This document shows, piece after piece, positions 3,004 through 25,934 of a DNA stretch of 36,388 bases. Source of the DNA: Candidatus Marinamargulisbacteria bacterium (GTDB lineage Bacteria > Margulisbacteria > Marinamargulisbacteria > SXXA01 > JAHFDB01). A model generated the notes under the pieces. That model saw only the letters and a program-made list of their open reading frames with translations, was not told the origin of the DNA and did not search any database. Each line of letters opens with the position of its first letter. Position 1 is the stretch's first letter. Where the stretch lies: assembly GCA_964202165.1 (NCBI GenBank), contig CAXNHA010000002.1:1-36388 (forward strand), given 5' to 3'. The translations under genes and the position numbers were made by a program.

Positions 3004-3009
3004 ATTACC

Positions 3010-3096
3010 CTATTTTCTAGCCTTCATTTTTTTCCCATATTTCTTATACTTGTGTTTTCTCATTTTTTTGCGTCTTTTTTTGATCAAACTTCCCAT
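3010..3096 (-). CDS. 28-aa ultra-basic peptide MGSLIKKRRKKMRKHKYKKYGKKMKARK, resembling ribosomal protein bS22 (AURKAIP1/COX24, mS38-like family)
   Basis: Below the ORF-track size cutoff and translated by hand. ATG at 3096 is preceded by a perfect AAGGAG with a 5-nt spacer (TAAGGAGTTTTTATG). The stop is TAG at 3010-3012. The N-terminal MGS(L/V)IKKRRK(K/R)M matches my memory of mycobacterial bS22. Confidence 0.7.
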   Translation of the reverse strand: MGSLIKKRRKKMRKHKYKKYGKKMKARK

Positions 3097-3156
3097 AAAA
3101 ACTCCTTAAAAATAATTCAATCGCAGTTTGGAATTTAGCTTAGTTTGTCAATAAAA

Positions 3157-4702: not shown

Positions 4703-5870
4703 GGGAAACCGATTCTACGCTTTGATAGACATGAGGCTCTGTTTTTTCTTCTTGAAATTCATTTGTTTTGATGGGCATCACCACATAAAAATAATCACTG
4801 CCTGTACTAGGTTCAAAAATACAAGGGCTCAATCCATCGTTACAACTTACTTTTACATCATCTGAATCCATATGTTTTAACGCATCTAAAACCAAATGAA
4901 CATTAAACACAACCCTGATCACATCATTACCCATCTGCCTAGATAGCTTTAATTCTTCATAAAAGCTACCCATAGAACTCGCTCTCGATGTCATGATAAC
5001 GGTATCCATACCCACAAGAAGGCTCACCACATTATTGGCCTCTGACGCAACAATAGAGGCTCTCTCACATGCATCAAAAAAGGCCCGTCTCGAAATTAAA
5101 ACAGACTGACTCGGCATCTTGGGAATTACTTTTGTGTAATCTGGAAACTTAGACTCAATGGTCCGAGAAATAAGAACAATACTTCCCATTCTAAAAGAGA
5201 CTTGTTTTTCTGAAACAGAAAGTAAAACATCTTCAGAAAAATCAACAACTTGCAATATTTTTTGAAAATCAGCCAATGTTTTTTGAGGAATAATAACCGT
5301 AAAATCAGGTACAAAACTTTCTGGTTTGAGTTGATACAAGGCCAATCGGTATCCATCTGTGGATACACAGGTAAGTTGTCCTGATTCACTTTTCAAAAAA
5401 ATCCCATTTAAATGGGATTTTTTTTCATCAGAAGAAACACAAAATAACGTGTGTTTAATCATTTCTTTAAGAGAGGCTATGCTAAGTCTAAATTCCAAAC
5501 CGGCATTTATTTTTGGAAAATCTGGATACTCAGCAACATCAATACCCGATACATTAAAATTAACCGTCTCAGCAGAAATATGCACTTCAAATGCATCATT
5601 TTTTGAAAAATCAAGGGTTTTGTTTTGCAACTTACCCAACATACTACTCAATGTTTTTGATTTGATAAGAATAGAACCAGGTTCAGAAGCATTAATTGGG
5701 AGCGTGTATTCTATGGCAATTTCAAGATCATTTCCTCTTAGGAAGAGTGTTTGGTCTTGAATGGAAAGGTACATATTTTCCAATATGGGGATAGGGGTTC
5801 TGGAAGGTATCGCTTTTTCAACAATGGATACAGCTTTTTGTAAATTGCTGCTGCTACATGTGAATTTCAT
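4680..5870 (-). CDS. dnaN: DNA polymerase III beta sliding clamp
   Basis: MKFTCSSSNLQKAVSIVEKAIPSRTPIPILENMYL... is a typical DnaN N-terminus. The gene follows dnaA. SD AGGAGAG lies upstream of the ATG. About 27 aa of acidic tail extend past the usual MPxx C-terminus. Confidence 0.93.
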   Translation of the reverse strand: MKFTCSSSNLQKAVSIVEKAIPSRTPIPILENMYLSIQDQTLFLRGNDLEIAIEYTLPINASEPGSILIKSKTLSSMLGKLQNKTLDFSKNDAFEVHISAETVNFNVSGIDVAEYPDFPKINAGLEFRLSIASLKEMIKHTLFCVSSDEKKSHLNGIFLKSESGQLTCVSTDGYRLALYQLKPESFVPDFTVIIPQKTLADFQKILQVVDFSEDVLLSVSEKQVSFRMGSIVLISRTIESKFPDYTKVIPKMPSQSVLISRRAFFDACERASIVASEANNVVSLLVGMDTVIMTSRASSMGSFYEELKLSRQMGNDVIRVVFNVHLVLDALKHMDSDDVKVSCNDGLSPCIFEPSTGSDYFYVVMPIKTNEFQEEKTEPHVYQSVESVSHAEEIME

Positions 5871-6100
5871 TTTTAAGACTCTCCTTTTTTTAATTCTAAT
5901 AATATGAATTTTCTAATTTAATATATAAATTAGTAGTAGTAATAGCTGTGGAAATGTGGACAAAGCTATTTTTTAATGGATTTTAACACGATTTTTAAAG
6001 GATTACCCTGTGAAAAAATTGGGGTAAACCTGCTACAACTTTTATCAAGTAAAGGGTTTATCCCAAGTCATCCACATACTATGGGTATCTTATCCACAGG
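5871..6100. promoter_or_regulatory. oriC-like dnaA-dnaN intergenic region: AT-rich stretch plus DnaA boxes
   Basis: Scored against TTATCCACA: perfect box at 6090-6098, TcATCCACA at 6068-6076 (8/9). Two overlapping reverse-orientation boxes follow: TGTGGAAAT at 5947-5955 (7/9) and TGTGGACAA at 5955-5963 (8/9). A strongly AT-rich segment lies at about 5890-5945. Confidence 0.6.
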
Positions 6101-7450
6101 TTATGCATCGTTTTTAATATTTGAGATTAGTAGGGTGATAATGCTTCTTGTATCAGAATCAGTTTGCAACATTCCTTTGATTTTATCGCAGGCATGCATA
6201 ACAGTAGAATGATCTCGCTTGCCAAAATTTTCACCAATTTTTGGCAAAGAAACATTGGTCAATTCTCTTGCCAAATACATGGCTATTTGACGAGAAAATG
6301 CTATTTCTCTTGTTCGTTCCTTTGAACAAAGTTCGGAATTGGAAATGTTAAAATAGTCACATACTTTTCGTTTAATATAATTAATAGAAATGGGTTTTTC
6401 TTGCTTAATCCCAATCAAATCACGAATGACGTTGCTTGCAATAGAGAGGGTTACTTCTGTTTTAAGAAGGGAGGCATACGCTACGATTCGCGTCAGAGCC
6501 CCTTCCATTTCACGGACATTTGATGGGATTTGTGTCGCAATAAAATGGAGGATTTCATCAGAAACAGTGAGGTGATTGATCTCAATTTTTTTTCTCAAAA
6601 TAGCAATTCTTGTTTCCAATTCAGGGGGTTGAATATCAGCAATTAATCCCCATTCAAAACGGGTTCTTAGACGAAGTTCTAGCGTGGGAATTTCTTTTGG
6701 GGGTCTATCTGAGGAAATTACGATTTGTTTGTTGTTGCTATGTAAATCATTAAAGGTATGAAAAAACTCTTCTTGCGTTTGTTCTTTGCCAGCAAGAAAT
6801 TGAATATCATCCACCAACAAGACATCAAGTGTCCTATATTTTGCTCTAAAAGACTCTACTTTTTTATCTTTGATGGCATTGATTAGGTCGTTTGTAAATT
6901 TTTCAGAAGAGACAAGCTGGATTTTGGATTTTTTATTTTTTCTGGATATTTCCATACCAATAGCATGGAGGAGATGTGTTTTGCCAAGTCCAACAGATCC
7001 ATAGATAAATAAGGGGTTGTACGCCTTTGCAGGTGCTTTGGAAACAGCTTCTGATGCGGCATGGGCAAATCGGTTGTTGTGACCCACAATAAAATTATCA
7101 AACGTATACCGCTGGTTAAATCCATTGGGGGTTTCATAGGGCTCAACAGGGTTTTGAATGTCTGACAGACTCATTTGATACGTAGAAGGGGACGACTCTA
7201 TTGATTCGGAAACGGTATATAAGAAGATAATATCTTGGTAAGCGGTTTTGTTGAGCGATTGTTTTAAAATAGGCTCACACTTCTCTTTAATCCATTCTCT
7301 AGAAAACATATTGGGGACCTCGATGGTCAAAACGAGGCTTTCAAATCCAACGGGCTTTGCGCAAGATAAAAACGTTTGAAATCCAGGTCCAGATAGTTTT
7401 TCTTTTAAAGAACTTAATACAATTTCCCATAATATCATCATGTTATACAC
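6101..7450 (-). CDS. dnaA: chromosomal replication initiator DnaA
   Basis: Walker A GSVGLGKTHLLHAIG, Walker B LLVDDIQF, and C-terminal DNA-binding signature IAFSRQIAMYLARELTNVSLPKIGENFGKRDHSTVMHA. The track start is GTG at 7450; ATG at 7441 or 7438 (MMILWEIV...) are equally plausible. Confidence 0.97.
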   Translation of the reverse strand: MYNMMILWEIVLSSLKEKLSGPGFQTFLSCAKPVGFESLVLTIEVPNMFSREWIKEKCEPILKQSLNKTAYQDIIFLYTVSESIESSPSTYQMSLSDIQNPVEPYETPNGFNQRYTFDNFIVGHNNRFAHAASEAVSKAPAKAYNPLFIYGSVGLGKTHLLHAIGMEISRKNKKSKIQLVSSEKFTNDLINAIKDKKVESFRAKYRTLDVLLVDDIQFLAGKEQTQEEFFHTFNDLHSNNKQIVISSDRPPKEIPTLELRLRTRFEWGLIADIQPPELETRIAILRKKIEINHLTVSDEILHFIATQIPSNVREMEGALTRIVAYASLLKTEVTLSIASNVIRDLIGIKQEKPISINYIKRKVCDYFNISNSELCSKERTREIAFSRQIAMYLARELTNVSLPKIGENFGKRDHSTVMHACDKIKGMLQTDSDTRSIITLLISNIKNDA

Positions 7451-7581: not shown

Positions 7582-8472
7582 TTAGAGTATTTTTTCCAAA
7601 TATTTTGTAAAAATATAATAGAGTTTAAGCCTAGGAGAGATTTGGTTTTGGATAATTCCATTTAATTGGACCAAGACAAATTGTTGGATAGCGGGTTGAT
7701 TTAAGGTGGTTTTTAAGAATTTTTTTGTATGGGATTGGGTGATAGATTGGACAATTGGAAAATCTCCTTCGAGAAGTTGAACATATAGATGGAGTTTTTC
7801 AATCAAGTGGATAAAATCGTAGGTAGGAGATTCAAAAAAAGAAACAACATGAAGGGTATGCCCAGATGCATTTTTGACCGATAAATCTTCTGGTAAAAAT
7901 TGAGCGATGTATAAAAATAAGGCGTTGATTTGTTCGGATGGAAGCGATGAAATCAAGATAAATAAGTCATGAATGGGCAATGATTTTTCTGAGAAAAAAT
8001 TCAAGGTAAGTATTCTTTTTTCAAAAGAAGAGAGAATATGGGTGAGGGTTTGCGTATAAGTGGATAAGCAGATAATCCCTTTTTCTAAACACAAAAAAGA
8101 AGGCTCTGTCCAGTTTTCTTTGAGAATTTTTTTGGATATTCCTTTAAAAAATAAGAGAAAATCATCCCCATTCTCTCCCCATATAAACGTATCCTTAACC
8201 CTATTTTTCCAGACAATCACGACTTTGGACTCGATAAAAGAAATTTTTTGGATGTCAGGGATCAAAATCCCTTTGTGAAAAGACAGGAGAAGAAGACAGA
8301 GTAGTTGAAATAAAAACAAGGTATCTGGATGGTAAAGATCGGCTTTTATATCCCGTTTTTGATCCAAAAAAACGTCTAAATGCCCTATTTTTTCTGCAAT
8401 ACCTTGGAGCATCAATAGAGAGGGAGGGTGATGAAGTTTTACCATTATGTTGTGGCTAGGTGAGAGACTCAA
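7582..8472 (-). CDS. hypothetical protein (296 aa, no recognised motif)
   Basis: Long ORF co-directional with and overlapping the upstream aminotransferase gene by 17 nt. TTG start; an alternative ATG lies at 8445. Confidence 0.55.
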   Translation of the reverse strand: MSLSPSHNIMVKLHHPPSLLMLQGIAEKIGHLDVFLDQKRDIKADLYHPDTLFLFQLLCLLLLSFHKGILIPDIQKISFIESKVVIVWKNRVKDTFIWGENGDDFLLFFKGISKKILKENWTEPSFLCLEKGIICLSTYTQTLTHILSSFEKRILTLNFFSEKSLPIHDLFILISSLPSEQINALFLYIAQFLPEDLSVKNASGHTLHVVSFFESPTYDFIHLIEKLHLYVQLLEGDFPIVQSITQSHTKKFLKTTLNQPAIQQFVLVQLNGIIQNQISPRLKLYYIFTKYLEKIL

Positions 8473-13623: not shown

Positions 13624-14199
13624 TCAAAGTAGAAAACGGGGCTTTTTTAACCACATCAGAAACGCATCTGTAAGAGCCTGGGCAAAGAGAGCTTTATCGT
13701 AGGGTTTCCCCGTTTGCTGATACAATGATGTGGCCACATGAGACAGAAGATCTGAAAAATGGTCGTGGTTGAGATTGATACCCACCCCCACCACAACATA
13801 CCGAGGATATATGGAGTGCCCTTCCACAGCTGTTTCGAGCAAAATACCTGCCACTTTTTTACCATCGATCATGACATCATTGGGAGGCTTGAGTGTGGGA
13901 TGCACACCGGAAAGGGTCTGGATCACATGGATGACAGATTGAGCTGCGGATGTCACCACAGCGGGGATGTCTTCCAACGTAAAAGAAGGTTTTATTAACA
14001 ACGAATAGTACAGCCCATCTTCTGAGTCAGAATGCCAGATGTGATCACCTTGGCCTCGACCGGCAGTTTGGGTATCAGCCACAATCACCAATCCCGTCTT
14101 GAGTTGATCCTCAGTGAGGGTGGAGGCCAAGCGTTTGGCCTCGTTGTTGGTGGAGTCGAGAGAGGGGTATGTATAGATTTTGGGGTTAATATTTGCCAT
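13624..14199 (-). CDS. birA: biotin--protein ligase, catalytic domain only (191 aa, no HTH and no C-terminal cap domain)
   Basis: GRGQGDHIWHS (compare GRGRxGRxW), LKPPNDVMIDGKKVAGILLE (compare KWPND...KLAGILVE), and VGVGINLN. It overlaps the 3' end of the carboxylase gene by 14 nt on the same strand. Confidence 0.75.
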   Translation of the reverse strand: MANINPKIYTYPSLDSTNNEAKRLASTLTEDQLKTGLVIVADTQTAGRGQGDHIWHSDSEDGLYYSLLIKPSFTLEDIPAVVTSAAQSVIHVIQTLSGVHPTLKPPNDVMIDGKKVAGILLETAVEGHSIYPRYVVVGVGINLNHDHFSDLLSHVATSLYQQTGKPYDKALFAQALTDAFLMWLKKPRFLL

Positions 14200-17100
14200 G
14201 CTTTTCGATCAGCATTTCTGCAACCCGGTCAGATTCATCATGGGAATATCCATTTGGGAATAATTTTTTAAATTCTTCTTCGGTCACAATCGCAAATGCA
14301 GACTCTCCATCCAAAAATCGTGCCACATTACATTGTTCCATTGTCAATTCTGTGGCTTTACCCTGTTTGATCAGCTCCATAACTTTTGACAATCCCTTTC
14401 TTAAGGGAATAAGGACGCCTTGGGTGTGCCCTGTCGGAAACTGCGATTGGAACAACGCGTCGGTGCTTTCTTTTTTTGAGACCTCTCGTGTCAAGACCAT
14501 ATTGCCTATTGTGACCACTTGGCCAAATTCTACCCCACCCAAAAGTCTCTTGATATATCCCGCTCCACCGACGCCACTTGTTGCAAACAATGTGTTTCTG
14601 ATCTCCGGTATTCGCTTTGCAAATGTAATTGGGATGACATAAGGCTCTCCATCCACCAAAAAATGAGCTAATTTTTGATTGGTCATTTTATTGATTTTAG
14701 GTTCTATGTGCTGAAGTTCAACCTCCATGGATTTTCCGTTTGGTAACTGGATGCGATATTTTTTGCCAGGCACCATATTGCCCATAGCCAACTCATGGGT
14801 TAACAGCGTTTCTCCATACTTTTGCATATGTTCAAGCAATGCTGCCAAGTTATCATCTGGCAACATTGCACCTGCTATCAACGTTAATGAATCAAGGCTG
14901 TTAATGACGCCCCAGGAGATTCCTTTTTCATTATGAAGACGTTGTTTGAAGGCTTCTAGATTAAATGGCCTTTCGTGAGGTGCTGTTAGTCCATATGCCT
15001 CCATTACATCCTTCCTATAGGAAGGAAACCCCAGTGGATTGGGCTCTCCCATTTCTCCTGCAATAAAATCACGAACCGTCTTGTCTAAGTTAAGATCTCT
15101 GATTGCTTTCTGATTGCCACTGTTCAATGTGTCCAAATACTCTTTTGCAATCTGGTCTAACAACAAGACACGGGTTAATTCTTTTTTTAATGCATTTGTA
15201 TCGCGATCAGGAGCCCACAAAATAGCTTTGTAGCCATTTTCTTGTGCGGAAGGATCTATAGTAGAAACAGATTTTGTTTCAAAAACCAATCTATCTGCTT
15301 CTTTTTGGATATTGAGATAGGTGTCGCTTTTTAAGAATGTTTCGTCCTTGAGTGACACATCTAGTCTACGAAGTAAATCCAGTCCCAGATTGGCTGTAGC
15401 TTGAGATGTTGGGGTAACCAATGTAAGACGGTGGTAGGGATTTTTAAAATCAGGTGTATCTGCCAAAATTTTGTCAGCAAATGCATAGGCCCACCCCGCT
15501 ACACGGCCATCAGAAATAGAGGTTAAGGGCAGGCCATTGTTGACAATTTGAGAGGCAAAGCTTGGTGCTTGGCCACCGGGTATGCGAAAAAATCGAGCTC
15601 CCAACGGGCCTAAAAAGGCTTCGCATTGGGATGGGGATACCTTCATATCATTGTAGTAGGAATGTAAGTTGTCATAAAACTTTGTTACGGTCTGAATATG
15701 CTCATCGACAACTTCTTGAGGAAGATGCTTGCCAGATGCTTTAATCTCTTTAATCAAGTCTTGTATAGAAACTTGCCCAAAGCTTTTACCCATATTGGTA
15801 AAAGCAGCATCCATGAGATCTGCTCCAGAATTTGCTTGCACCCTGGCGGCATCTCCTTTTGGATTGTGCATGTGCGTGTGTACCAATCCTTTAAATCCAC
15901 AGTCTTCCTTGATGATTCTCACCAATTCTTTCATATCAGAGACATTGGCTTGGCCAACCATATCTTTGATATCAATGATAAATTCATCTTGGTCCAACCC
16001 CTGTTCTTTGGCCAAAGCGATGATATTGTGGACCAGTTTTCTGTAGTAGGCTGCGTTGTAGACGGTGTCTCCACCTGTAAGGGCTCCCGTGTATACCACA
16101 GAAAACATAGGCATCACGACACCCTGAAAGCCTTCATTTTTTAATTCTTTGATCGCTTGGCAATACGCCTTGATGCTTTTGGATAAGCCTACCTGGGCAT
16201 CTTTATCCACAGAATTGCAGGCGTCAAAAATACGGGGCATTGTACATCCGGATTTGATCGACTCTTTAAACAGAAGTACCAGCGACTCCATGGGTTGCGC
16301 ATAATAGCTAATGCCAGTTGAGCGAAATAACCAGCTTGAGATGGTATCAGACAAGGTGTGTAGATCTTTCATCACCCGACCATGGTCTTCTTGTTTAAAG
16401 AGTAGGTCTGCAGCAGCCCGTGCACCGCCACCACCCTCCATCATAAAAAATGGAAATAGTTTTCGAATAGGATCTAAAACATCTCGCGTATCAACGCTAC
16501 GGTCTCTATTGGCAAGATCGGACTGAAAATGATCTCTTTGATTGGTGTATACAGGAATTACCAGGTTGTTTTCTTGTATCCATTTTGTAAAGCCTTTTGG
16601 ACCCAACTCTTGCAATTTATCTTTAATGCCACTTTGTTTTTCTATGCCCTTCTTGATCATGGATAATAATCCACGTAATTCCTCTATAGGATAAGGGCTA
16701 TTTTCTGCATTGGGATTGATCTTTTGTTGGGAAGCCTTGACCCCTCCTGCAAGATCTGACACAGCCTGAAGAGCCCCGTTTTGTTGTTGGATCGCCTCCT
16801 GTTTTTTTTGAATCTTAGCGGGGGCCGTCTCGTACAAATAGGGATCGCGTTGTGCTTGATCTGTGGGCACAACTTTGTCTTGACCAATCTGCTCAGCTGC
16901 ATTCCATAGAGGCGTCAGATTTAAGCTTGGGCCTGAGATCTGCACGTTAATCAAAAAGCGTTTTGTTTTTTCTGCCCATAATGTTTTGGCTAATTTGAGA
17001 TAGCCCTTTTCTCCAATCTCATCTGAAGAATACCTGTCCAACACCTCTTGCTTGGTGATGCTAATTTCCACTCTCATGATATTGCTATCCCCACTCACAG

Positions 17101-18730
17101 GGATGCCTTGTCCTGTACCAATACAATTGCCAGGAACGTAGACGCCTGGCATATCTGGAATAATCACCTGCTCAAAGATATTGTTCCCTGTGGTGGTGGT
17201 TGGCATAAAACGCCCATTTTTTTTGGTAAATGCACCCTCCATGTTGACACGAAGCTGGCCATTAAAAAGAACATGCTTATCTGAATTTTTTCGATCCAAG
17301 TCAATTTGCTTATGAATAGGCTCAAGCTCGTACAATGTGCCCCCATTGGCAACATGGCATAGAATAGCTGTAATAGAACACCCGGATGCGTCTTCGGAAA
17401 CAGGATGTTCTACTTGAACACGCGTGTTGACCTCTAATGCAATAAATTTTTGTTGATCACGGTCATACAAAAACTCAATGGTAGCAGCTCCTGCGTAGCC
17501 AATACTGTGCAACATGTTTTGCAATTTTGGTTGATAGCTGTCTAATATCTTTTGTCCTTCAACATCATCAAATAGCGTCTCCAGGTATTTTTTGCTGTCT
17601 CCTGCCTGAAAACTACAATTGCGAGGGGGTAAAAATATTGCTTGCCCATCTTTGTCCATAACAACCTGCATTTCAACGTGTTCAAAATTGCCAGATAAAT
17701 TGGCTTCTACAATCAAATCAGAATTGCCAAATTGGGTTTTTCCTTCTGACTTTGCAGCACTTATGAGGCTTTCAACGGAAGCCATTGCGTTCTTCTGAGT
17801 CTCTCCAGAACCATACAAGGCATCATGAATTATTTCTTTTGGGATGACCCGTTGTCCACCACCTCCGCCACCATCGATGGCTTTTACCCGCAGGTCTTGG
17901 TTGTTTAAATCAGATTGATTCTTTGCAACCCATAAAAATCCAAAGATATCCGAATCAAACCCCTCCTGCGTGTTTAACAAAGGGCTAGACTCTTTCATCC
18001 CAATTTCTCGCAAGGTCTTTTGGGTGCCTGGAATAACAGGTAGGTCAAATGTTGCAAATAATTTTTTGGAGGCATCTTTTGGGCCTACTTGTGCCATTGC
18101 ATTGGAATTTGGCCCAAGAAAAATTAATCGGTTTGCGTATTCTTTAGATAAGTCCTCGAGTTTTTGGACAAAATCAGATTTTTCAGACAAAAACCCATAC
18201 CCAGGATAAACAGAAATCGCTTTGCCGGGGTTCTCTTTTAAAAGCTGTTCTATGTTGGCCAAAATAGAGTCTTGATCGGTATAGCTTTTGATTGGCATGG
18301 TGGTATGTGCATAGTCTCCATGACCCGTTTTTGCTTGCTCATCGCTTGGATCTTGCATGGCTACCAAGCGGGCGCTTCCTCCCGTTAGGGCAGACATTTT
18401 TTGAAAAAAATCTGTGGCACATCCTCCTCGGTGCAGACAAACAATAATGTCTGTATGCTCGATTTTATTGATATAAGGATCCACGTGTTGAGGTGAAAAT
18501 TCTATGCGATTGATGCCTGTTTTATTATTATTATTTGGGATAGAAAGTTCTTGATTTCGAGTAAGTTGTCGTTGTAGAGAGCTAAAATTTTGAGAAGATA
18601 GCCCCATCGGAAAGAGATTAATTTTATTTGACGTCTGTTGCTTTAATTGTTTGGAAAGATATTTCCAAAACATTCCTTTAAGAAGTGGGCGTCTGGTAAC
18701 TTGAGACAATAATCCACTGAATTGCTGCAT
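14186..18730 (-). CDS. giant divergent biotin-dependent carboxylase with pyruvate-carboxylase architecture (biotin carboxylase + carboxyltransferase TIM barrel + BCCP-like domain), ~1514 aa
   Basis: - **BC:** KAIDGGGGGGQRV and EVNTRVQVEHPVSE.
- **CT:** NQRDHFQS, MEGGGGARAAADLLF, IKDMVG, HTHMHN, IPGGQ and VTPTSQ.
- **BCCP-like:** VVTIGNMVLTREVSKKES.
- **Start:** the ORF extends to 18784, but ATG at 18730 is preceded by AAGGGAGG with a 9-nt spacer, so it is preferred. Confidence 0.8.
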   Translation of the reverse strand: MQQFSGLLSQVTRRPLLKGMFWKYLSKQLKQQTSNKINLFPMGLSSQNFSSLQRQLTRNQELSIPNNNNKTGINRIEFSPQHVDPYINKIEHTDIIVCLHRGGCATDFFQKMSALTGGSARLVAMQDPSDEQAKTGHGDYAHTTMPIKSYTDQDSILANIEQLLKENPGKAISVYPGYGFLSEKSDFVQKLEDLSKEYANRLIFLGPNSNAMAQVGPKDASKKLFATFDLPVIPGTQKTLREIGMKESSPLLNTQEGFDSDIFGFLWVAKNQSDLNNQDLRVKAIDGGGGGGQRVIPKEIIHDALYGSGETQKNAMASVESLISAAKSEGKTQFGNSDLIVEANLSGNFEHVEMQVVMDKDGQAIFLPPRNCSFQAGDSKKYLETLFDDVEGQKILDSYQPKLQNMLHSIGYAGAATIEFLYDRDQQKFIALEVNTRVQVEHPVSEDASGCSITAILCHVANGGTLYELEPIHKQIDLDRKNSDKHVLFNGQLRVNMEGAFTKKNGRFMPTTTTGNNIFEQVIIPDMPGVYVPGNCIGTGQGIPVSGDSNIMRVEISITKQEVLDRYSSDEIGEKGYLKLAKTLWAEKTKRFLINVQISGPSLNLTPLWNAAEQIGQDKVVPTDQAQRDPYLYETAPAKIQKKQEAIQQQNGALQAVSDLAGGVKASQQKINPNAENSPYPIEELRGLLSMIKKGIEKQSGIKDKLQELGPKGFTKWIQENNLVIPVYTNQRDHFQSDLANRDRSVDTRDVLDPIRKLFPFFMMEGGGGARAAADLLFKQEDHGRVMKDLHTLSDTISSWLFRSTGISYYAQPMESLVLLFKESIKSGCTMPRIFDACNSVDKDAQVGLSKSIKAYCQAIKELKNEGFQGVVMPMFSVVYTGALTGGDTVYNAAYYRKLVHNIIALAKEQGLDQDEFIIDIKDMVGQANVSDMKELVRIIKEDCGFKGLVHTHMHNPKGDAARVQANSGADLMDAAFTNMGKSFGQVSIQDLIKEIKASGKHLPQEVVDEHIQTVTKFYDNLHSYYNDMKVSPSQCEAFLGPLGARFFRIPGGQAPSFASQIVNNGLPLTSISDGRVAGWAYAFADKILADTPDFKNPYHRLTLVTPTSQATANLGLDLLRRLDVSLKDETFLKSDTYLNIQKEADRLVFETKSVSTIDPSAQENGYKAILWAPDRDTNALKKELTRVLLLDQIAKEYLDTLNSGNQKAIRDLNLDKTVRDFIAGEMGEPNPLGFPSYRKDVMEAYGLTAPHERPFNLEAFKQRLHNEKGISWGVINSLDSLTLIAGAMLPDDNLAALLEHMQKYGETLLTHELAMGNMVPGKKYRIQLPNGKSMEVELQHIEPKINKMTNQKLAHFLVDGEPYVIPITFAKRIPEIRNTLFATSGVGGAGYIKRLLGGVEFGQVVTIGNMVLTREVSKKESTDALFQSQFPTGHTQGVLIPLRKGLSKVMELIKQGKATELTMEQCNVARFLDGESAFAIVTEEEFKKLFPNGYSHDESDRVAEMLIEKHGKY

Positions 18731-18860
18731 AGCAATTGACCTCCCTTTTTTGAATGTTGAGTAGCTTGCTATAGTTCTGTACAAGATAAACGAACATTGC
18801 GTATAGTGTTTTTTTTGAGAAGCTGGAAAATATATAGGCTGAAAGGGGGATGGTCAACCA

Positions 18861-19427
18861 ATGATATCCAAAACACAGGTGTCACTAGCAGGGAGTGTTC
18901 TGTTCTTGCATCCTAAGATCGACTCTACCAATCTTGAGGCTGAACGTTTTTTGCATACAGCGGATGAAGGAGCTTTGCATGAGGGGGCTGTGTTTATTGC
19001 CAAAATCCAAACCAATGGACAGGGTAGTTTTTATCGAAAATGGGTCTCTGATCTGGGAGGCTTGTATTACAGCTTGTTGATGCCCTGTTCGGAAGCAGTG
19101 GCCCAAACCAATGCGCTTCCCCAGATTGCAACCTGTGTTAGAGATGTGCTTTTTGAATTCACACACCTACCTGTCGAAGTAGATCATCCCAATGACCTTG
19201 TTGTGGGGGACAAAAAAATAGGCGGTATTTTATTAAAAACGCTACCAAAACAAATGCAACACTTTATCATTATCGGCATCGGTATTAATCTAAACCAGAG
19301 CTCTTTTTCTGATGAGATTCACATGCGAGCAACCTCTGTCTTTCAGCTTACAAAAAAACGCATCAGCCAAAAAGCTATTGCCACCCCTCTCACGCTAGCC
19401 CTAAAAAAATGCTTGGTATCGCTTTAA
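18861..19427 (+). CDS. biotin-protein-ligase-like paralog with degenerate catalytic motifs (188 aa)
   Basis: Has the same fold pattern as the 13624-14199 product (LGGLYYSLL, DKKIGGILLK, IGIGINLN). However, the biotin loop reads TNGQGSFYRKW and the KWPND position reads DHPND. It is divergent from the carboxylase gene. Confidence 0.65.
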   Translation: MISKTQVSLAGSVLFLHPKIDSTNLEAERFLHTADEGALHEGAVFIAKIQTNGQGSFYRKWVSDLGGLYYSLLMPCSEAVAQTNALPQIATCVRDVLFEFTHLPVEVDHPNDLVVGDKKIGGILLKTLPKQMQHFIIIGIGINLNQSSFSDEIHMRATSVFQLTKKRISQKAIATPLTLALKKCLVSL

Positions 19428-19441
19428 AAGTGCCCCCAACA
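19404..19441 (+). repeat. direct repeat copy 1 (38 bp), covering the 3' end of birA-2
   Basis: AAAAAATGCTTGGTATCGCTTTAAAAGTGCCCCCAACA recurs at 20723-20760 with a single mismatch. Confidence 0.9.
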
Positions 19442-19448
19442 TTATTGG

Positions 19449-20615
19449 CTAAATGCCTCTAAAAAGAGCAGCGATCGGGATGAGATGAACCGTGTCTATG
19501 ATGTCGTAGGTTTCACCAGTATAAAATAGAATTAAACGGATTGCTCGGTCCGAATGCACCTGAGAAAATGCCACTAGAGATCGAATGTCTTTGCGGCTTG
19601 GTTTCTTCGTGCTTTTTATTTCAATGGCATACAGGACATAGTCATCTGTTTCAAAAATCAGGTCAATTTCTCTACCTGAAACGCTTTTGTAATAATAGAA
19701 TTGCGCACTTTTTATCAATCCTAATTTTCTTCTTTTTTCCAATTCAGCAATCACAAAATTTTCTAATAGCTGGCCTTCTTGTAAGGGAATGTTCAGGCTA
19801 TGGATGATGCCATTGTCTGCAAAGTATGTTTTTGCCGCTTTAATGTATCGTTTTGCAGGACCGTATTGGTAGCCGTAAAGTTTAAAAACAAGCTGGGATT
19901 GAGTTAAAATAGCGAGATACTTCTGAGCAGTCGGGTAACTTAATCCTGATTCTCTGGCAAAATTGGATGTTTCCAGAGGAGAGCCTATGGATCGAGCGAT
20001 ATGGTGAAAAATACCAAGCAATCCCTGCTGGTGCTCGATGTGGGCCAACTGCATAATATCTCGGATAAAATAGGTGTTCTTATAATTGGCCAAAAGGGTT
20101 TGTTTAAGCGGTGGGGTTGGTTGCAAAATAACTTCAGGAAATTGTCCATAGGTGATAGCTGTCTGCAACTGCCGTTGCGCTTCTTTAATGATCGGGGGCG
20201 TTTGTTTGTCGGTGAAAATAGTGTGAGTGGGTTTGCCTAGTTCTTCTCCCCAGCATACTGTTGGAAATTGATAGAGGGATATTCGCCCTGCCAATGTATC
20301 AGCCGCACTGTCTAATAGCCCAATTGAGCTTGACCCTGTCATAAAAAAGAGGGCATCACTGCTATCGATGGCATACTTAACGGCTATCGTTAGACGGGGT
20401 TCTCTTTGGATTTCATCAATGATGACCTGTTTTCCTAGGCTGTTAATAAATCCTTTTGGATCGTTTTTTGCCCATTCCAGGTAATCCAAGTCATCTAGCG
20501 TGACGTAATTAAAACTGGGAAAAGCTGTTTTTAAGTACGTGGTTTTTCCAGATCGCCTGGGGCCTATTATGAGGCAACTTTTAGCGGGATCTATGGTGAG
20601 CCATCTTGAGAACAT
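19449..20615 (-). CDS. AAA-family ATPase with winged-helix and C-terminal PD-(D/E)xK nuclease-like domain (AAA_14 + DUF4143 architecture)
   Basis: Walker A GPRRSGKTT, Walker B VIIDEIQ, a putative wHTH LSYPTAQKYLAILTQSQLV, and the C-terminal REIDLIF...YAIEIKSTKK (D...ExK). Confidence 0.8.
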   Translation of the reverse strand: MFSRWLTIDPAKSCLIIGPRRSGKTTYLKTAFPSFNYVTLDDLDYLEWAKNDPKGFINSLGKQVIIDEIQREPRLTIAVKYAIDSSDALFFMTGSSSIGLLDSAADTLAGRISLYQFPTVCWGEELGKPTHTIFTDKQTPPIIKEAQRQLQTAITYGQFPEVILQPTPPLKQTLLANYKNTYFIRDIMQLAHIEHQQGLLGIFHHIARSIGSPLETSNFARESGLSYPTAQKYLAILTQSQLVFKLYGYQYGPAKRYIKAAKTYFADNGIIHSLNIPLQEGQLLENFVIAELEKRRKLGLIKSAQFYYYKSVSGREIDLIFETDDYVLYAIEIKSTKKPSRKDIRSLVAFSQVHSDRAIRLILFYTGETYDIIDTVHLIPIAALFRGI

Positions 20616-20621
20616 TATCGT

Positions 20622-20664
20622 ACTCTAACATGGATATTTATAAAGTCAATTTTATAAATATCCA
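20622..20664 (-). promoter_or_regulatory. putative promoter/operator of the ATPase gene: 14-bp perfect inverted repeat centred on a TTGACT -35 element, with a TAGAGT -10 element
   Basis: Arms at 20631-20644 (TGGATATTTATAAA) and 20651-20664 (TTTATAAATATCCA) with a 6-nt spacer GTCAAT. On the minus strand it reads TTGACT, 16 nt, TAGAGT, 6 nt, ATG. This implies a leaderless or nearly leaderless mRNA. Confidence 0.3.
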
Positions 20665-20674
20665 GCACATTTAT

Positions 20675-20746
20675 AAAACCAATACGCTTCCTCAGATTGC
20701 GACTCCCCTAACAATCGCCTTGAAAAAATGCTTGGTATCGCTTTAA
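20675..20746 (+). pseudogene. collapsed remnant of a birA-2 copy
   Basis: Translates as KTNTLPQIATPLTIALKKCLVSL*. This is birA-2 ...QTNALPQIAT fused to IATPLTLALKKCLVSL*. At the DNA level, 20676-20703 matches 19105-19132 (3 mismatches), and 20695-20760 matches 19376-19441. Confidence 0.8.
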
Positions 20747-22090
20747 AAGTGCCCCTAACAACTCTTGATGCTGGGGCTCTTTGTGGATAGACAGAAGCTC
20801 TTGGATACGGGTGATACGCTCGTCAATAGATACAAAGTCGCCGGCGTTTTTTAAGAGTGTGCCGGTCTCATATCGAGGAATCATATAGCGGCTCAGATGC
20901 TCTTGTGTGGGATGGGGGTGCCAGTTGAGATAGGCGCGGTTGAATAATTGCATCAGATAAAAATCTTTTTTGTGTCGACCATTCTGCTTGTATTGGTCCA
21001 ACAACGTCCGAATCGTGCGTGCGTAACTATCGGGCTGCTGGATCAATGTCTGAACACAATGCCCTAAAATCGGAATACGCTCAAATCCCAGTTCATACAA
21101 TTGATAGTCAATGTCCCAGTCTTTTTTAATTTTTTCATAATACAGTTCAGGGGTTAGCGTTGCGATAAACCCATGCCCAGAGGCTTTTTCGTACACAGGT
21201 GTCCAATAGGATGTTTCTTCAGCAGAAAGGGCTTCAGAGATAAAAAAATGCTTGTTTGGGTTGATACGATGCAAGCAAGAAAGGCAATCGATTTCTGTAG
21301 CTTCCTCTGGTAGGTGTTGCCATTTATCCAAATCCAGCAGCAACAAGGCCTGTTTATCTTCCCATAGTTTTGCCCAATAGCGAGGTGTTTTGTGATCAGG
21401 AACCGCCTCACTTTGCGAATATCCAATCTCCCATTGTTTGAGCATAAAAAATGGTTTTTTAGGATACTGAATGGGTATAAATTTGGAAAAAGATACCCCA
21501 AATTTTTGTTCAAATGCCCGTATCAAATCCACCATGAGATGGACATCTTCTTCCGCCGAGTGGGTCTGAGGTGCCGTCAATACACCCATCGATTTGGCCA
21601 AGGTTTCGAGCTTGAAAACGTAATACGGATTGCCCAATGCATTAACTCCCAACTCCCATGGGAATGACTCAGAGTGGATGAGGGCCAGCCATTTTGCAAC
21701 ATGTAAGACGTCTCGATTTTGCAATTTGCCCATAAAATAGGGGTTGTACCCATATCGAATCAGCAAGCTTCTTAAAAATTCCAAATCAAATCGATTGCTA
21801 TTAAATCCCACCAACGTGCATGTCCCGTATTGTTGGATGCACCGATTCAAAAAATCAAAAATAGTCTTGGCAGCCTCATATTCAGGGATCCCTTTGTGCG
21901 CAAGCTCCTCTATATGGATTTGATTGACCCAAATGGCATCTGGATCGGGGAGTTGTATGCGGTTGAGCTGAATGTAGCCTGTGCAGGTATCCAGACAGGT
22001 GTAGGAAGTGTCTAGACAGAAAAACGCATAGGAGAGTATCTGCCCTAACAGATCCCTCGAAGAGGTTTCAAAATCATAAAACAGGTACAT
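20708..22090 (-). CDS. sbcB: exodeoxyribonuclease I-like DEDDh 3'-5' exonuclease
   Basis: LFYDFETS (ExoI motif), GFNSNRFDLEFLR (ExoII), and HSAEEDVHLMVDL (ExoIII H-x4-D). The length of 460 aa is similar to E. coli ExoI. Confidence 0.78.
   Translation of the reverse strand: MYLFYDFETSSRDLLGQILSYAFFCLDTSYTCLDTCTGYIQLNRIQLPDPDAIWVNQIHIEELAHKGIPEYEAAKTIFDFLNRCIQQYGTCTLVGFNSNRFDLEFLRSLLIRYGYNPYFMGKLQNRDVLHVAKWLALIHSESFPWELGVNALGNPYYVFKLETLAKSMGVLTAPQTHSAEEDVHLMVDLIRAFEQKFGVSFSKFIPIQYPKKPFFMLKQWEIGYSQSEAVPDHKTPRYWAKLWEDKQALLLLDLDKWQHLPEEATEIDCLSCLHRINPNKHFFISEALSAEETSYWTPVYEKASGHGFIATLTPELYYEKIKKDWDIDYQLYELGFERIPILGHCVQTLIQQPDSYARTIRTLLDQYKQNGRHKKDFYLMQLFNRAYLNWHPHPTQEHLSRYMIPRYETGTLLKNAGDFVSIDERITRIQELLSIHKEPQHQELLGALLKRYQAFFQGDC
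20723..20760 (+). repeat. direct repeat copy 2 (38 bp), covering the 3' end of the exonuclease gene
   Basis: 37/38 identical to 19404-19441. Confidence 0.9.
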
Positions 22091-24068: not shown

Positions 24069-25934
24069 ATGGAGCGTGTTATGATCGACAATCATAAAGC
24101 CATGAACCATTCTTCTGACCTTATTCATACCTTCCATATCCCTGTTATGGGGACGGCTTTTACGATTGATTCACCTGTCAAAGTAGCTCGTTTTGGTATC
24201 ACATCCGTTGTCTCTATTGGAGACGATGAATTATGCGAGTACACGCGAGAACACTATACACAATCCCTGAGGGAGTCTTTTGAGCCCATTACCAAAAAAG
24301 ATCACGATTACCGGGCAAAACGCATTACCGCCTATTTGAATCTGATTAATCGTATTGTTGAGCAACAAATGGTCACCATGGCGCAGCTTCCTTTTGGTTT
24401 AAACAATGATCTTGCAAAATACTTCGAGCTGTTACCGGAAAATTCTGAGATCAAAAAAACCTATATCAAGATGATATCTTTGCCAGAAGGATCCGAAAAA
24501 CAAATGCATCAAGCCTATTTGAAAACCTGTATTAGGCCAGGCTCCATTGATGTGAATATCATGACCAAAATCGACCGGGACACCTATGATCAAAACGGAG
24601 AGTTGCTGCCTGAGCATTTTTCAGATGCCTTAGCTGCTCTAAGAGGGTATGCACTGAGTACATTGTCTTCGGCCGTTGAGTTTTCTGCCGGGTTCAATCG
24701 TCGCCTGTATGCTTATATCGAACAGTTTGATGATTTTTTTCCAGATGCCACAGGGTTTATCAAAAAACAAATCGTGATCAAAGTGTCTGATGTAAGATCA
24801 TCGCTCATTCAAGGAAAGTTTTTGGCTAAAAAAGGGCTTTGGATTTCTGAGCATCGCATTGAATCAGGCTTGAATTGTGGCGGACATGTTTTTCCAACAG
24901 AAGGCCATCTCATGGGGCCTATCTTAGAAGAATTTAAACAAAAAAAAGATACGATCGCATCCACATTTTACGACATGGTAAACGACGCCTTGCTAAAAAA
25001 GGGAAGATTTACTTTTTTACAAACTCCTCCCATGCGTATCACCGTACAAGGTGGGGTTGGTACAGCCAATGAACACCAGTTTTTGCAAAAAGAGTATGAG
25101 GTAGATTCGGTTGGTTGGGGCACTCCTTTTTTATTGGTTCCAGAAGCCACCAATGTAGATGAAAAAACCCGTACGTTATTGGCAACCTCTCCGAGGGAAA
25201 ACTTTTATACCAGTGGGATTTCTCCTCTAGGCGTGCGATTTAATACAGTTAGAGGAACAGATAGCGAAGAGCTTAAGCTAAGACGAGTAGAGGAAGGAAA
25301 GCCGGGTAGTCCCTGCCCAAAAGGACATTTGGTTAACAATACTGAGTTTACAAAAAAACCGATTTGCACAGCATCCACCACCTATCAAAAACGAAAGATA
25401 GAACAATTAAAATCTCTGCAACTATCTCCTGATATCTTGCAAAAAGCTTTTCAAAAAATTATTGACAAAGCCTGTTTATGTGAAGATCTAGCCGCTTCAG
25501 CCTTGATCAACCACCATCAAATCAACAAACGAATCCTAGCACCTGCTATTTGCCCGGGACCCAATATGGGTTATTTTGACCGTACAATGACTTTGTCAGA
25601 GTTGGTTGCCCATATTTATGGGCGTCTGCACGTGATGACGCATGCCAATCGGCCCAATTTGTTTGTATCAGAACTGAGGTTGTATATCGAACACCTTGTT
25701 TTTGAGATCAAGGAGTCGCTACCAAAACCAACTTCCAAACAAATTGGCTATTTTCAGTCCTTCCAGAAAAATCTGATGGAAGGCATTCAGTATTACAAGC
25801 AATTGATCCCAAAATTTACCCTCGAAACCCAAAAGTATCGAGATGCAATGAAAGACGAGCTTCAAGCCATTCGCAATGAGCTAGAGGCTTTAGGGCATGC
25901 ATATCCGCACATCTTTGAGAATGCATTGTCATGA
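24069..25934 (+). CDS. conserved-looking protein of unknown function (621 aa), possibly a TIM-barrel (nitronate-monooxygenase-like GGH motif) with a Cys-rich C-terminal half
   Basis: Long ORF, with an ATGA overlap to the downstream ABC ATPase gene. Motifs seen are HIPVMGTAFTIDSPVKVARFGITSV, ESGLNCGGHVF, VQGGVGTANE, and the Cys set CPKGH...C...CLC...CPGP. No family was identified with confidence. Confidence 0.7.
   Translation: MERVMIDNHKAMNHSSDLIHTFHIPVMGTAFTIDSPVKVARFGITSVVSIGDDELCEYTREHYTQSLRESFEPITKKDHDYRAKRITAYLNLINRIVEQQMVTMAQLPFGLNNDLAKYFELLPENSEIKKTYIKMISLPEGSEKQMHQAYLKTCIRPGSIDVNIMTKIDRDTYDQNGELLPEHFSDALAALRGYALSTLSSAVEFSAGFNRRLYAYIEQFDDFFPDATGFIKKQIVIKVSDVRSSLIQGKFLAKKGLWISEHRIESGLNCGGHVFPTEGHLMGPILEEFKQKKDTIASTFYDMVNDALLKKGRFTFLQTPPMRITVQGGVGTANEHQFLQKEYEVDSVGWGTPFLLVPEATNVDEKTRTLLATSPRENFYTSGISPLGVRFNTVRGTDSEELKLRRVEEGKPGSPCPKGHLVNNTEFTKKPICTASTTYQKRKIEQLKSLQLSPDILQKAFQKIIDKACLCEDLAASALINHHQINKRILAPAICPGPNMGYFDRTMTLSELVAHIYGRLHVMTHANRPNLFVSELRLYIEHLVFEIKESLPKPTSKQIGYFQSFQKNLMEGIQYYKQLIPKFTLETQKYRDAMKDELQAIRNELEALGHAYPHIFENALS

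Follow-up and report, generated by a model that had tools for sequence, protein, structure and literature searches.

A repeat-flanked single-gene ATPase-nuclease cassette in Marinamargulisbacteria, probably placed by insertion with long target duplication

The closest described counterparts of the locus reported here are restriction-modification inserts, which are flanked by duplications of 46-423 bp, carry no mobility genes and were defined by comparison of filled and empty genomes (Furuta, Abe & Kobayashi 2010, PMC2853133). The phenomenon, insertion with long target duplication, is attributed in that paper to Nobusato et al. 2000 (ref. 37 in PMC2853133), and a lone mcrA gene among the duplication-flanked inserts provides a single-gene case. 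The protein family COG1373/PDC-S01 (AAA_14 + DUF4143) is described as the fourth most common prokaryotic defence candidate, with repeated inter-domain transfer (PMC12988326).

The locus lies on contig CAXNHA010000002.1 of a Candidatus Marinamargulisbacteria bacterium (assembly GCA_964202165.1) and was analysed in a window comprising the whole stretch of 36,388 nucleotides (Table 1). By analogy it fits insertion with long target duplication and would not be new in itself. As in the restriction-modification inserts, a nuclease-encoding unit lacking transposase, integrase or inverted repeats is placed between long target repeats, whose length varies (46-423 bp there, 337 bp or more in the window) and which often take in an adjacent gene's 3' end. 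The differences lie in the cargo, a PDC-S01-type ATPase-nuclease that has no accompanying methyltransferase, in the probable target, a tail-to-tail overlap in which a single repeat restores two genes, and in the searches for an empty-site genome, which found none here. The protein has the ATPase plus PD-(D/E)xK architecture of PDC-S01 and matches the models of this family (E 1.9e-76), which PADLOC lists as a single-gene defence candidate, but this copy is located among housekeeping genes near dnaA, outside any defence island. Integrase islands and prophages that insert into tRNA or protein genes share the flanking direct repeats (attL/attR), the element-proximal copy restoring the 3' end of the gene they enter, whereas the window has no integrase, no tRNA genes lie at the repeats and the insert measures only 1.2 kb. 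Integron gene cassettes are likewise compact single-ORF units with very tight boundaries in many contexts; however, the cassette in the window has its own promoter, no attC and no integron integrase, and integron cassettes do not feature long target duplications. Free-standing homing endonuclease genes, for example in T4-like phages, are lone nuclease genes wedged between conserved genes that spread by intronless homing through recombination and repair rather than transposition, the gene being copied into the cognate empty allele and the target not being duplicated. The placement of a lone nuclease gene between conserved genes is the same here, but the homing enzymes are of the GIY-YIG, HNH and LAGLIDADG types and the protein in the window is an AAA+ ATPase joined to a PD-(D/E)xK nuclease.

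Table 1. Features of the cassette, its flanking repeats and the adjoining genes
Feature	Position	Strand	Description and evidence
birA-2, biotin-protein ligase, 188 aa	18861..19427	+	PF03099 E 2.4e-14; TIGR00121 birA_ligase 101.7 bits, above cutoff
Target copy 1 (T, 337 bp)	19105..19441	.	birA-2 3' part plus 14 nt; dead sbcB tail on minus strand; blastn blocks
Inserted cassette (probable), 1,234 bp	19442..20675	-	bounded by repeat on both sides; 7 nt + ORF + 60 nt upstream
AAA_14 ATPase + DUF4143 PD-(D/E)xK nuclease, 388 aa	19449..20615	-	PF13173 E 4.7e-21; PF13635 E 6.8e-28
Regulatory region of cassette (predicted)	20616..20675	-	inverted repeat search and promoter scan
Target copy 2 (85 bp)	20676..20760	.	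28-nt mid-gene birA-2 block plus the gene's last 51 nt; live sbcB 3' end on minus strand
sbcB-like DEDDh exonuclease	20708..22090	-	NCBIfam exodeoxyribonuclease I E 2.9e-15, below cutoff; PDB ExoI E 2.8e-6

The repeat search of the window shows a 65-nt direct repeat (19377-19441 and 20696-20760) with 85% identity (55/65 positions, E 6e-16 in local blastn) that contains a 38-bp core (19404-19441 and 20723-20760) with 37 of 38 positions matching. The single core mismatch, 19437 C against 20756 T, exchanges the leucine codons TTG and TTA and is synonymous in the sbcB frame, and nine differences occur in the 27 nt to the left of the core. A second block, 19105-19132, recurs at 20676-20703 with 25/28 positions matching (blastn, E 5e-6), and in copy 2 it is joined in frame to the main repeat block with the junction ATTGCGAC (20696-20703) matching both ATTGCAAC (19125-19132) and ATTGCCAC (19377-19384). 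The preliminary description had listed the 38-bp repeat with one mismatch, weaker leftward homology of about 26 of 35 positions, which is roughly right, and a 28-bp block with three mismatches fused directly to that homology, all of which the alignments bear out; the blastn comparison of the two flanks suggested there finds the repeats significantly similar. The deletion it described in the birA-2 remnant also stands, although the size of roughly 240 bp does not, as copy 2 lacks exactly 252 bp relative to copy 1, corresponding to 84 codons in frame. Its translation of the remnant (20675-20746) as KTNTLPQIATPLTIALKKCLVSL followed by a stop codon is correct, with BirA-2 residues 173-188 mapping to 20696-20743 at 94% identity (tblastn). 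Its placement of both gene ends in the repeat holds as well: on the minus strand copy 1 reads through to LLGALLKRYQAFF and a stop codon, and sbcB residues 444-458 match 19442-19398 at 87%. The genuine sbcB C terminus is AFFQGDC. The last 323 nt of birA-2, an intact gene that encodes the catalytic domain only, are inside copy 1, and the last 53 nt of the sbcB-like gene (20708-20760) are within copy 2.

The sbcB-like gene product is, on sequence grounds, a distant relative of exonuclease I, with 96 homologues and the best match (49% identity) in Margulisiibacteriota-type MAGs. In three relatives the exonuclease gene overlaps its convergent neighbour by 14-47 bp, making an ancestral tail-to-tail overlap plausible. 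The birA-2 orthologues (41-47% identity) adjoin a giant carboxylase in relatives, and the birA-sbcB adjacency is absent from every relative examined. The search for an empty site proposed in the preliminary description found none in any collection searched, a result explained by the lack of database entries close to this lineage (49% amino-acid identity at most); the ancestral state and the polarity of the event are thus inferred.

The space between the repeat copies is occupied by a single ORF, preceded by 60 nt and followed by 7 nt, in agreement with the 1.23-kb single-gene insert and 60-bp upstream region first described. Pfam scans of the whole 36-kb window and the repeat search show no integrase, transposase or terminal inverted repeat, as had also been stated, and the window holds no further copy of the cassette. 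The GC content and codon usage of the cassette do not differ from those of the host, suggesting that the event is old or that the donor had a similar composition. In an alignment of 21 sequences the Walker A motif GPRRSGKT and the residues D318/E332/K334 are invariant. Solved structures gave no match to the ATPase-nuclease at the sequence level, and the AF2 model (pLDDT 72.7) was compared by Foldseek, which returned Can2/Card1, McrB and RFC with high probability and low TM-scores (0.2-0.27). The N-terminal half resembles AAA+ motors (McrB, RFC, RuvB) and the C-terminal half PD-(D/E)xK effector nucleases, so the folds of the two halves are like those of McrBC-type (Type IV) restriction and the Can2/Card1 CARF-nuclease effectors, from which the protein differs in being a single polypeptide and in the low TM-scores. 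The model indicates NTP-driven nucleic-acid cleavage as the likely function, and the gene is a candidate anti-phage gene.

Upstream of the ATPase gene a perfect 14-nt palindrome (20631-20644 and 20651-20664) surrounds a -35 box TTGACT (20649-20644), and the promoter scan places a TG-extended -10 box TAGAGT at 20627-20622, with its end 6 nt ahead of the ATG. No Shine-Dalgarno sequence precedes this ATG, which together with the position of the -10 box predicts a leaderless mRNA; the cassette is predicted to carry its own palindromic operator-promoter of ~50 nt that starts transcription at the ATG. The block is conserved at the DNA level over about 50 nt in >10 phyla; across 57 loci each position between about -49 and -1 carries ~1-1.6 bits, the signal drops to background level beyond -62, and in the window the block occurs only once. 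The family-wide conserved unit begins at about -53 and ends with the stop codon, with background outside and no conservation 3' of the stop codon across the family. The limits of the insert, -60 and stop+7, bracket this unit.

The ATPase-nuclease family is found in >10 phyla, and the best homologues of the ATPase are 61-67% identical and come from many phyla and unrelated contexts. The closest relatives are surrounded by redox genes, or by PIN, AbiEii and a second AAA_14-DUF4143 gene. From these identities the ATPase gene looks foreign, as the flanking core genes have closest matches of only 42-49%, and its identity is higher with copies from Desulfobacterota (65%) than with that of a Margulis-like relative (61%). 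Clustering by phylum is partial (82-86% within Calditrichota and 75-80% within Desulfobacterota), indicating that much of the family history is vertical and that the ~60-65% identity between phyla partly reflects strong constraint. Identical proteins always have the same context across samples, consistent with no recent movement, and plasmid, phage and IMG/VR collections contain no member of the subfamily, leaving no vehicle evident.

Flanking direct repeats (threshold E<=1e-5) occur at 13 of 105 non-redundant family loci compared with 3 of 169 controls placed with the same geometry in related loci (Fisher p = 4e-4), an enrichment of ~7-fold that argues against chance repeats. The closest relative of the cassette (L181) has a 108-bp repeat with 97% identity that takes in the final 28 codons of a convergently oriented gene, and the same architecture is present in L182, the two assemblies being from two sources. 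In L014 a 203+50 bp repeat corresponds to the 3' end of a PIN gene and begins directly after the stop codon, in L010 a 74-bp repeat corresponds to the serC 5' end, and in L087, from a related MAG, a 56-bp repeat surrounds another AAA_14-DUF4143 gene belonging to a second subfamily. Further independent gene-end duplications are present in L048, L060 and L145. The repeats in L064, L107, L115, L123 and L155 resemble dispersed host intergenic repeats and not target duplications. Repeats of different loci share no sequence, as expected if derived from the target, so there is no shared att core; no conserved attachment site is found across loci and no tRNA genes lie at the flanking repeats. Between the end of the upstream copy and the ATG lie 35-384 nt, and the start of the downstream copy ranges from -8 to about 240 nt past the stop, narrowing to -8 to +7 nt in the window, L010, L014, L068 and L087.

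These observations are best explained, with a probability of roughly 0.78, by a horizontally spread one-gene cassette having entered the birA-2/exonuclease overlap by insertion with long target duplication. The cassette would have entered a 39-bp tail-to-tail overlap of birA-2 and the exonuclease I-like gene, with the junction segment T of at least 337 bp doubled to give one copy on each side of the insert, so that each gene keeps its own 3' end. The redundant copy on the exonuclease side would later have lost the 252 bp between ATTGC microhomologies. This history, a cassette dropped into the overlap with the junction duplicated and one copy collapsed, is that of the preliminary description and is supported, its ancestral state being presumptive. 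Host recombination and repair acting on the incoming DNA, and no dedicated mobility enzyme, would have made the event. Illegitimate insertion with the duplication made in place, by fill-in of widely staggered breaks or by a replication-template switch, is given somewhat less than an even chance, and may have been followed by allelic exchange of birA-2. The divergence of the copies bears on this route, as 1/38 positions differ in the core and 11/47 outside it (p = 0.01), and the 16 codons on which the count rests include 7 synonymous and 3 non-synonymous differences in the birA frame outside the core (simulated P = 0.002-0.016 under neutral in-place decay of the remnant). A simple duplication and decay in place predicts neither the uneven divergence nor the synonymous bias, the latter hinting that one copy possibly came from a diverged functional allele. 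Such an allele is supplied by a Campbell-type event, a second route given roughly one chance in three, in which a circular molecule carrying the cassette and one T from a related lineage integrates by a single crossover with no duplication in this genome. Recombination between flanking copies in the donor lineage would excise the circle, and after uptake a RecA-dependent crossover within T would make donor and recipient T into direct repeats and restore both gene ends. The synonymous core mismatch agrees with this, and the near-identical core would be the doubly coding stretch of the ancestral overlap, where allele divergence is slow. Excision, amplification and release through flanking repeats have been proposed for restriction-modification units, with direct evidence for amplification only (PMC2853133). 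However, synonymous to non-synonymous counts at other loci show no consistent bias (L014 6:8, L060 2:4, L048 1:4, L010 2:4 and 5:6), L145 (9:5) being the sole exception, the donor lineage and circular junction are hypothetical, the first insertion at the site is left unexplained, and replacement of the birA-2 allele by ordinary homologous recombination gives an identical pattern.

It is improbable that the gene is self-mobilising and selfish, its ATPase-nuclease cutting the target with a wide stagger or by double-strand breakage and promoting insertion of the gene. The enrichment of flanking repeats around the family and their presence around the second subfamily, the invariant nuclease and Walker residues, the downstream copies close to the stop codon in several independent loci and the lack of an evident vehicle are in its favour, and double-strand breakage by a nuclease is the property proposed to lie behind the restriction-modification cases (PMC2853133). 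Against this, the insert end points vary so widely between loci that no element ends can be defined, sequence beyond the stop codon is not conserved, targets are unrelated from locus to locus, each locus has a single copy and identical proteins keep a constant context. Tight boundaries can also arise by later deletion of non-functional DNA, as the 252-bp deletion illustrates. That no insertion took place, the ATPase gene being native and the repeat a local partial duplication or gene conversion at the birA-2/exonuclease ends, is very unlikely. The host-like composition, the partial clustering by phylum and the missing empty site agree with it, but the repeat copies adjoin precisely the conserved promoter-plus-ORF unit on either side, each copy holds the ends of both flanking genes, which is sensible only if these were once adjacent, no relative examined has an ATPase gene beside an orthologue of either flanking gene at the junction, and identical architecture occurs at unrelated targets elsewhere. 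An assembly artefact, with a chimeric metagenomic contig or strain variants mis-joined at the repeat, is scarcely credible: these proteins are found on this contig only and repeats are classic mis-join points, yet the copies differ (55/65 positions and the deletion in one) in a way not expected from k-mer collapse or mis-joining, the three genes are all intact and closely spaced, and independent assemblies from other samples share the architecture (L181, L182).

Insertion with long target duplication thus remains the preferred reading for the cassette. This mode of insertion without a transposase was previously known only for restriction enzyme genes, as judged from searches for insertion of the present family under its family names. 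Should the gene prove to be self-mobilising, the promoter-plus-ORF unit would represent a new type of mobile element, autonomous and minimal.

The locus is probably an insertion with long target duplication, an event type already known for restriction-modification genes, so it is not a new category, and the preliminary description's insertion model is the best reading of it. A search of the region returns a single direct repeat around the inserted ATPase-nuclease gene (see the table of features). The shorter 38-bp core reported originally lies within it, and blastn of 19000-19450 against 20600-20800, the comparison proposed there, aligns 55 of the 65 positions (E = 6e-16) and recovers the second matching block at E = 5e-6. 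The copies differ at 1 of the 38 core positions and at 11 of the 47 other positions of the remnant (Fisher p = 0.01). In copy 2 the two blocks are joined in frame at ATTGCGAC, the piece absent being exactly 252 bp. The remnant encodes the BirA-2 C terminus with 94% identity over 16 amino acids, and the minus strand of copy 1 encodes a dead exonuclease tail with 87% identity over 15 amino acids (both by tblastn), as expected from the claims that copy 2 is a birA-2 remnant and that both gene ends lie in the repeat; all the statements made about the sequence hold.

Coordinates of the features discussed, in the window or, where a locus number is given, within that database locus
Feature	Position	Strand	Length	Remark
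birA-2	18861-19427	+	188 aa	ORF listing
Inserted ATPase-nuclease ORF	19449-20615	-	388 aa	ORF listing
Exonuclease gene	20708-22090	-	460 aa	ORF listing
Insert	19442-20675	-	1,234 bp	
Target copy 1 (reconstructed target)	19105-19441		337 bp	lower bound for target length
Target copy 2	20676-20760			collapsed birA-2 remnant
Direct repeat	19377-19441 / 20696-20760		65 nt	85% identity
Second block	19105-19132 / 20676-20703		28 nt	25/28 identical
Leucine codon, birA frame	19402-19404 / 20721-20723			CTA/TTG
Antisense ORF	20606-20746	+	46 aa	TTG start
Conserved upstream block	20616-20668	-		
Palindrome	20631-20644 / 20651-20664		14 nt	perfect
Promoter	20649-20622	-		TTGACT-16-(TG)TAGAGT
Second biotin-protein ligase	13624-14199	-		
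Pyruvate-carboxylase-like fusion protein	14186-18784	-	1,532 aa	
Replication-origin cluster	3157-7450			DciA-like, recF-like, dnaN, dnaA
L010 serC 5'-region copies	1-118, 264-337, 1547-1697			
L087 direct repeat	296-351 / 1823-1878		56 nt	96% identity
L087 ORFs	387-1826, 2001-3158			
L068 5'-region stretches	371-508 / 1688-1825			63% identity
L089 bAvd / 23S-rRNA-IVP genes	1224-1601, 4300-4689		125, 129 aa	

One difference between the copies, a leucine change that is synonymous in the birA frame, toggles the exonuclease frame between a TAG stop and a CAA glutamine, so that the predicted exonuclease tails of the two copies differ by four residues. The antisense ORF spans the start and the promoter of the ATPase gene, continues into the birA-2 remnant and terminates at that remnant's stop codon; it has no Pfam match and most likely arose from the insertion and is not a gene. 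For annotation, short "gene-end echoes" beside such cassettes are to be read as insertion footprints and not as independent small ORFs.

The inserted protein has an N-terminal AAA_14 P-loop domain (PF13173, 75.6 bits, cutoff 27) and a C-terminal DUF4143 domain (PF13635, 97.9 bits, cutoff 28.1), the latter belonging to the PD-(D/E)xK family (PMC3424549). The Walker A motif GPRRSGKT, the Walker B motif DE(I)Q and residues Asp-318, Glu-332 and Lys-334 are invariant in a 21-sequence alignment, the catalytic residues being intact. The AlphaFold model (pLDDT 72.7) matches the folds of the AAA+ motors McrB, RFC and RuvB and the PD-(D/E)xK effector nucleases Can2 and Card1 with high probabilities and low TM-scores, and among solved structures there is no match at the sequence level. 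The ORF also matches the PADLOC candidate single-gene defence family PDC-S01 (E = 1.9e-76), described as ranking fourth in frequency among the defence candidates of prokaryotes, with experimental validation pending (PMC12988326); anti-phage protection is a candidate function.

The rest of the 36-kb window holds housekeeping genes, comprising replication genes (DciA-like, recF-like, dnaN, dnaA), an aminotransferase, rpiB, an aminoacyl-tRNA synthetase, birA-1, the pyruvate-carboxylase-like protein, DUF6580, rho, an ABC transporter, RNase PH, mdh and sdhAB. The cassette is about 12 kb from dnaA, and the replication-origin cluster has a GC content of 0.35-0.37 compared with 0.42 elsewhere in the window. 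The product of birA-2 is a biotin-protein ligase with the catalytic domain only, and it and a paralogous short ligase of the same composition (36% identical) bracket the carboxylase-like fusion protein, in which Pfam reports no biotinyl-carrier domain; the BirA-2 orthologues of relatives adjoin carboxylases of 1,579-1,962 amino acids. The gene labelled sbcB encodes a distant exonuclease-I relative (NCBIfam ExoI E = 2.9e-15, below the cutoff; PDB ExoI E = 2.8e-6) with 96 homologues, the best 49% identical, in Margulisiibacteriota-type MAGs. For several sizeable ORFs, of 621, 173, 276 and 296 amino acids (24069-25934 (+), 1652-3003 (+), 7582-8472 (-)), Pfam returns nothing at the thresholds applied, and Rfam gives no match at E<=1 in 18500-21000.

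Alignment of 57 loci on the ATG of the ATPase gene shows DNA conservation of ~1-1.6 bits per position from roughly -49/-53 to -1, falling to background beyond -62, with conservation past the stop codon nil (~0.08 bits). The conserved block reads cATGGATAT-tttaaaCTTGACTTtaaa-ATATCCATG-tTAtttTaaact-ATG and is formed by a CATGGATAT/ATATCCATG palindrome about a TTGACT -35 box, followed by a -10 box that stops 6 nt short of the ATG, with no Shine-Dalgarno sequence. It is kept across more than 10 phyla (window and loci L005-L180, the L-numbers denoting database loci with relatives of the gene), among proteins only ~60-65% identical, and no other instance was found in the window. From this arrangement the transcript is predicted to be leaderless and is probably autoregulated. 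The limits of the window insert, at -60 and stop+7, bracket the conserved unit almost exactly.

When the two flanks of each locus are compared by blastn, 13 of 105 non-redundant loci have direct repeats around the ATPase gene, as do 3 of 169 control positions (Fisher p = 4e-4), the controls being non-redundant and taken from the same loci with the same geometry; this set supersedes an earlier control with overlapping windows (9/68 compared with 21/450). The repeats are 25 to ~300 bp long and unrelated in sequence between loci, save for the same element in sister genomes, and none coincides with a tRNA gene, so that they derive from the target. Those of L064, L107, L115, L123 and L155 resemble dispersed host repeats. 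In the closest relative (L181/L182) the repeat is 108 bp (97%). Its downstream copy contains the 28 final codons of a convergent Fe-S gene, and its upstream copy is a remnant encoding the same peptide. At L014, 203+50 bp of a PIN toxin gene 3' end follow directly after the ATPase stop codon, and L048, L060 and L145 show further gene-end duplications. The MAG that contains L087 (nzgw233, Margulis-like) carries a BirA-2 orthologue as well; the repeat at this locus surrounds a different AAA_14-DUF4143 gene of 479 amino acids. Across loci the gap between the end of the upstream copy and the ATG is 35-384 nt, the downstream copy begins between -8 and ~240 nt after the stop codon, and these variable end points argue against defined element ends.

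L010 has a 74-bp repeat with the serC 5' end, ending 56 nt before the ATG; the serC 5' region is present there in three copies, two upstream fragments and the intact gene downstream, which may reflect two successive events, or amplification then loss, and the final two codons and stop codon of the ATPase gene appear target-derived. Both copies of the L087 repeat begin at a stop codon, one at that of the upstream gene and the other at that of the ATPase; a second AAA_14-DUF4143 gene comes next, its start preceded by a perfect palindrome of its own (ATGTAATTTGTCAATTTAATTGACAAATTACAT). In Desulfotignum MAGs (L034, L045, L047, L048, L049) the downstream flank is common to three MAGs, the upstream flanks differ, and L049 has ~3.6 kb of extra DNA (with an 871-aa ORF) between the cassette and the common flank; the borders of the cassette resemble a variable hotspot. 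At L068 a stretch 185 nt past the stop codon resembles the ATPase gene's own 5' region and may be left over from a second cassette in tandem. At L089, inside a polysaccharide (Wzy) locus, two bAvd / 23S-rRNA-IVP genes bracket an epimerase gene and the ATPase cassette.

The arrangement corresponds to the "insertion with long target duplication" of restriction-modification genes described by Furuta, Abe and Kobayashi in 2010, in which variable repeats of 46-423 bp, sometimes overlapping the 3' end of a neighbouring gene, surround inserts without other mobility genes, a lone mcrA gene included (PMC2853133). The authors proposed double-strand breakage as the property shared by these cases, and a life cycle in which the unit invades, is amplified through the repeats and is released (PMC2853133). 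The window repeats exceed the 30 bp used in that definition, with 37 of 38 core positions identical and a target of at least 337 bp, and the insert falls well within its 20-kb limit and carries no other mobility gene. The cargo differs, being one AAA_14/DUF4143 gene with no methyltransferase, and the event is thus of the same kind with different cargo. Furuta and colleagues defined their events by an empty site in a related genome that aligns with both repeat copies; here the nearest relatives of the flanking genes are 42-49% identical and not syntenic. A transposon or insertion sequence would bring a transposase, inverted repeats at its termini and a target-site duplication that is short and constant in length, whereas the repeats here vary widely between loci; in agreement with the original description, Pfam finds no integrase or transposase among all ORFs of at least 120 amino acids in the 36-kb window, and the repeat search finds no inverted repeat at the insert ends. 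Integrase-mediated integration fits no better, as there is no tyrosine or serine recombinase and no att core common to the loci. In contrast to an integron gene cassette, the unit has a conserved promoter of its own upstream and no attC after the stop codon.

No empty site was found through relatives of the exonuclease or BirA-2, and the flanking proteins are found on this contig only. The three nearest exonuclease homologues (45-49%) have other convergent neighbours (acetyltransferase, PRAI and peptidase M24), with no birA and no synteny, and the BirA-2 orthologues (41-47%) are without exception linked to the giant carboxylase, with no case of linkage to the exonuclease gene. The exonuclease gene overlaps its convergent neighbour by 47, 26 and 14 bp in three relatives, so that the 39-bp ancestral overlap with birA-2 that we infer would be ordinary for it. 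The exonuclease C terminus (FF or FFQGDC before the stop) was considered as a marker of the ancestral stop, and the homologue tails are too variable to decide. An empty-site junction running from birA-2 straight into the exonuclease gene would read ...AAAAAATGCTTGGTATCGCTTTAAAAGTGCCCC[C/T]AACAACTCTTGATGC...

Outside the core the copies differ in the birA frame by 7 synonymous and 3 non-synonymous codons, and under neutral in-place decay of the remnant, with birA-2 under selection, so synonymous a pattern has a simulated probability of 0.002-0.016. The sole core mismatch is a synonymous leucine change in the exonuclease frame, and the near-identical core is the stretch that would have been doubly coding in the ancestral overlap. 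Together these suggest that the two copies diverged as functional alleles. The cassette could have come with a target copy from a related lineage by single-crossover integration of a circle, or birA-2 could later have been replaced by a diverged allele. Other loci show no consistent synonymous bias and the window count covers 16 codons, so the allelic divergence is a hint for this locus and is not generalised.

At E<1e-30 the ATPase has 1,383 homologues, and the 120 best of them are 61-67% identical and nearly all 386 amino acids long, compared with no relative closer than 42-49% for the flanking core genes. Genome and metagenome scans give 160 loci in many phyla, among them Desulfobacterota, Calditrichota, Gemmatimonadota, Fidelibacterota, Acidobacteriota, Spirochaetota, Myxococcota, Caldisericota, Riflebacteria and KSB1. 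The family groups partly by phylum and includes cross-phylum pairs, one of them at 88% (a deltaproteobacterial and an Aminicenantes MAG); the window protein is 65% identical to Desulfobacterota copies compared with 61% to the copy in a Margulis-like MAG. Its two closest relatives lie in unrelated contexts, one amid redox genes and the other adjoining a second AAA_14-DUF4143 gene, a PIN gene and AbiEii. The composition and codon usage of the cassette are host-like, with no sign of foreignness, indicating that the insertion was not recent. No second copy was found in the window, and there is no sign of recent hopping, two ATPase proteins present on 10-11 contigs each keeping one context across samples. 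The 386-aa subfamily has no member among PLSDB plasmids (at most 31%), INPHARED phages (at most 30%) or IMG/VR.

A further proposal is that the PDC-S01-type promoter-plus-ORF is a minimal autonomous mobile element whose own nuclease would break DNA for insertion, leaving a long and variable target duplication, with the repeats permitting excision as a circle and reinsertion. We consider this improbable, at perhaps one chance in eight. Little is understood of how single-gene defence systems get to places in the chromosome that are not part of plasmids, phages or islands, and how restriction-modification genes insert with long target duplication and no mobility enzyme has been an open question since 2000. 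The present analysis ties this route to the very common PDC-S01 family and adds a measurable enrichment of target duplications around it, ~7-fold for the flanking repeats, and a deeply conserved promoter-operator, predicted to be leaderless; the enrichment and the ~50-nt palindromic promoter-operator shared across more than 10 phyla are both testable by-products. A 1.2-kb one-gene unit with many natural instances is far easier to reconstruct and study than a restriction-modification system of several genes, and if the proposal were true, single-gene defence systems would move between genomes without a transposase.
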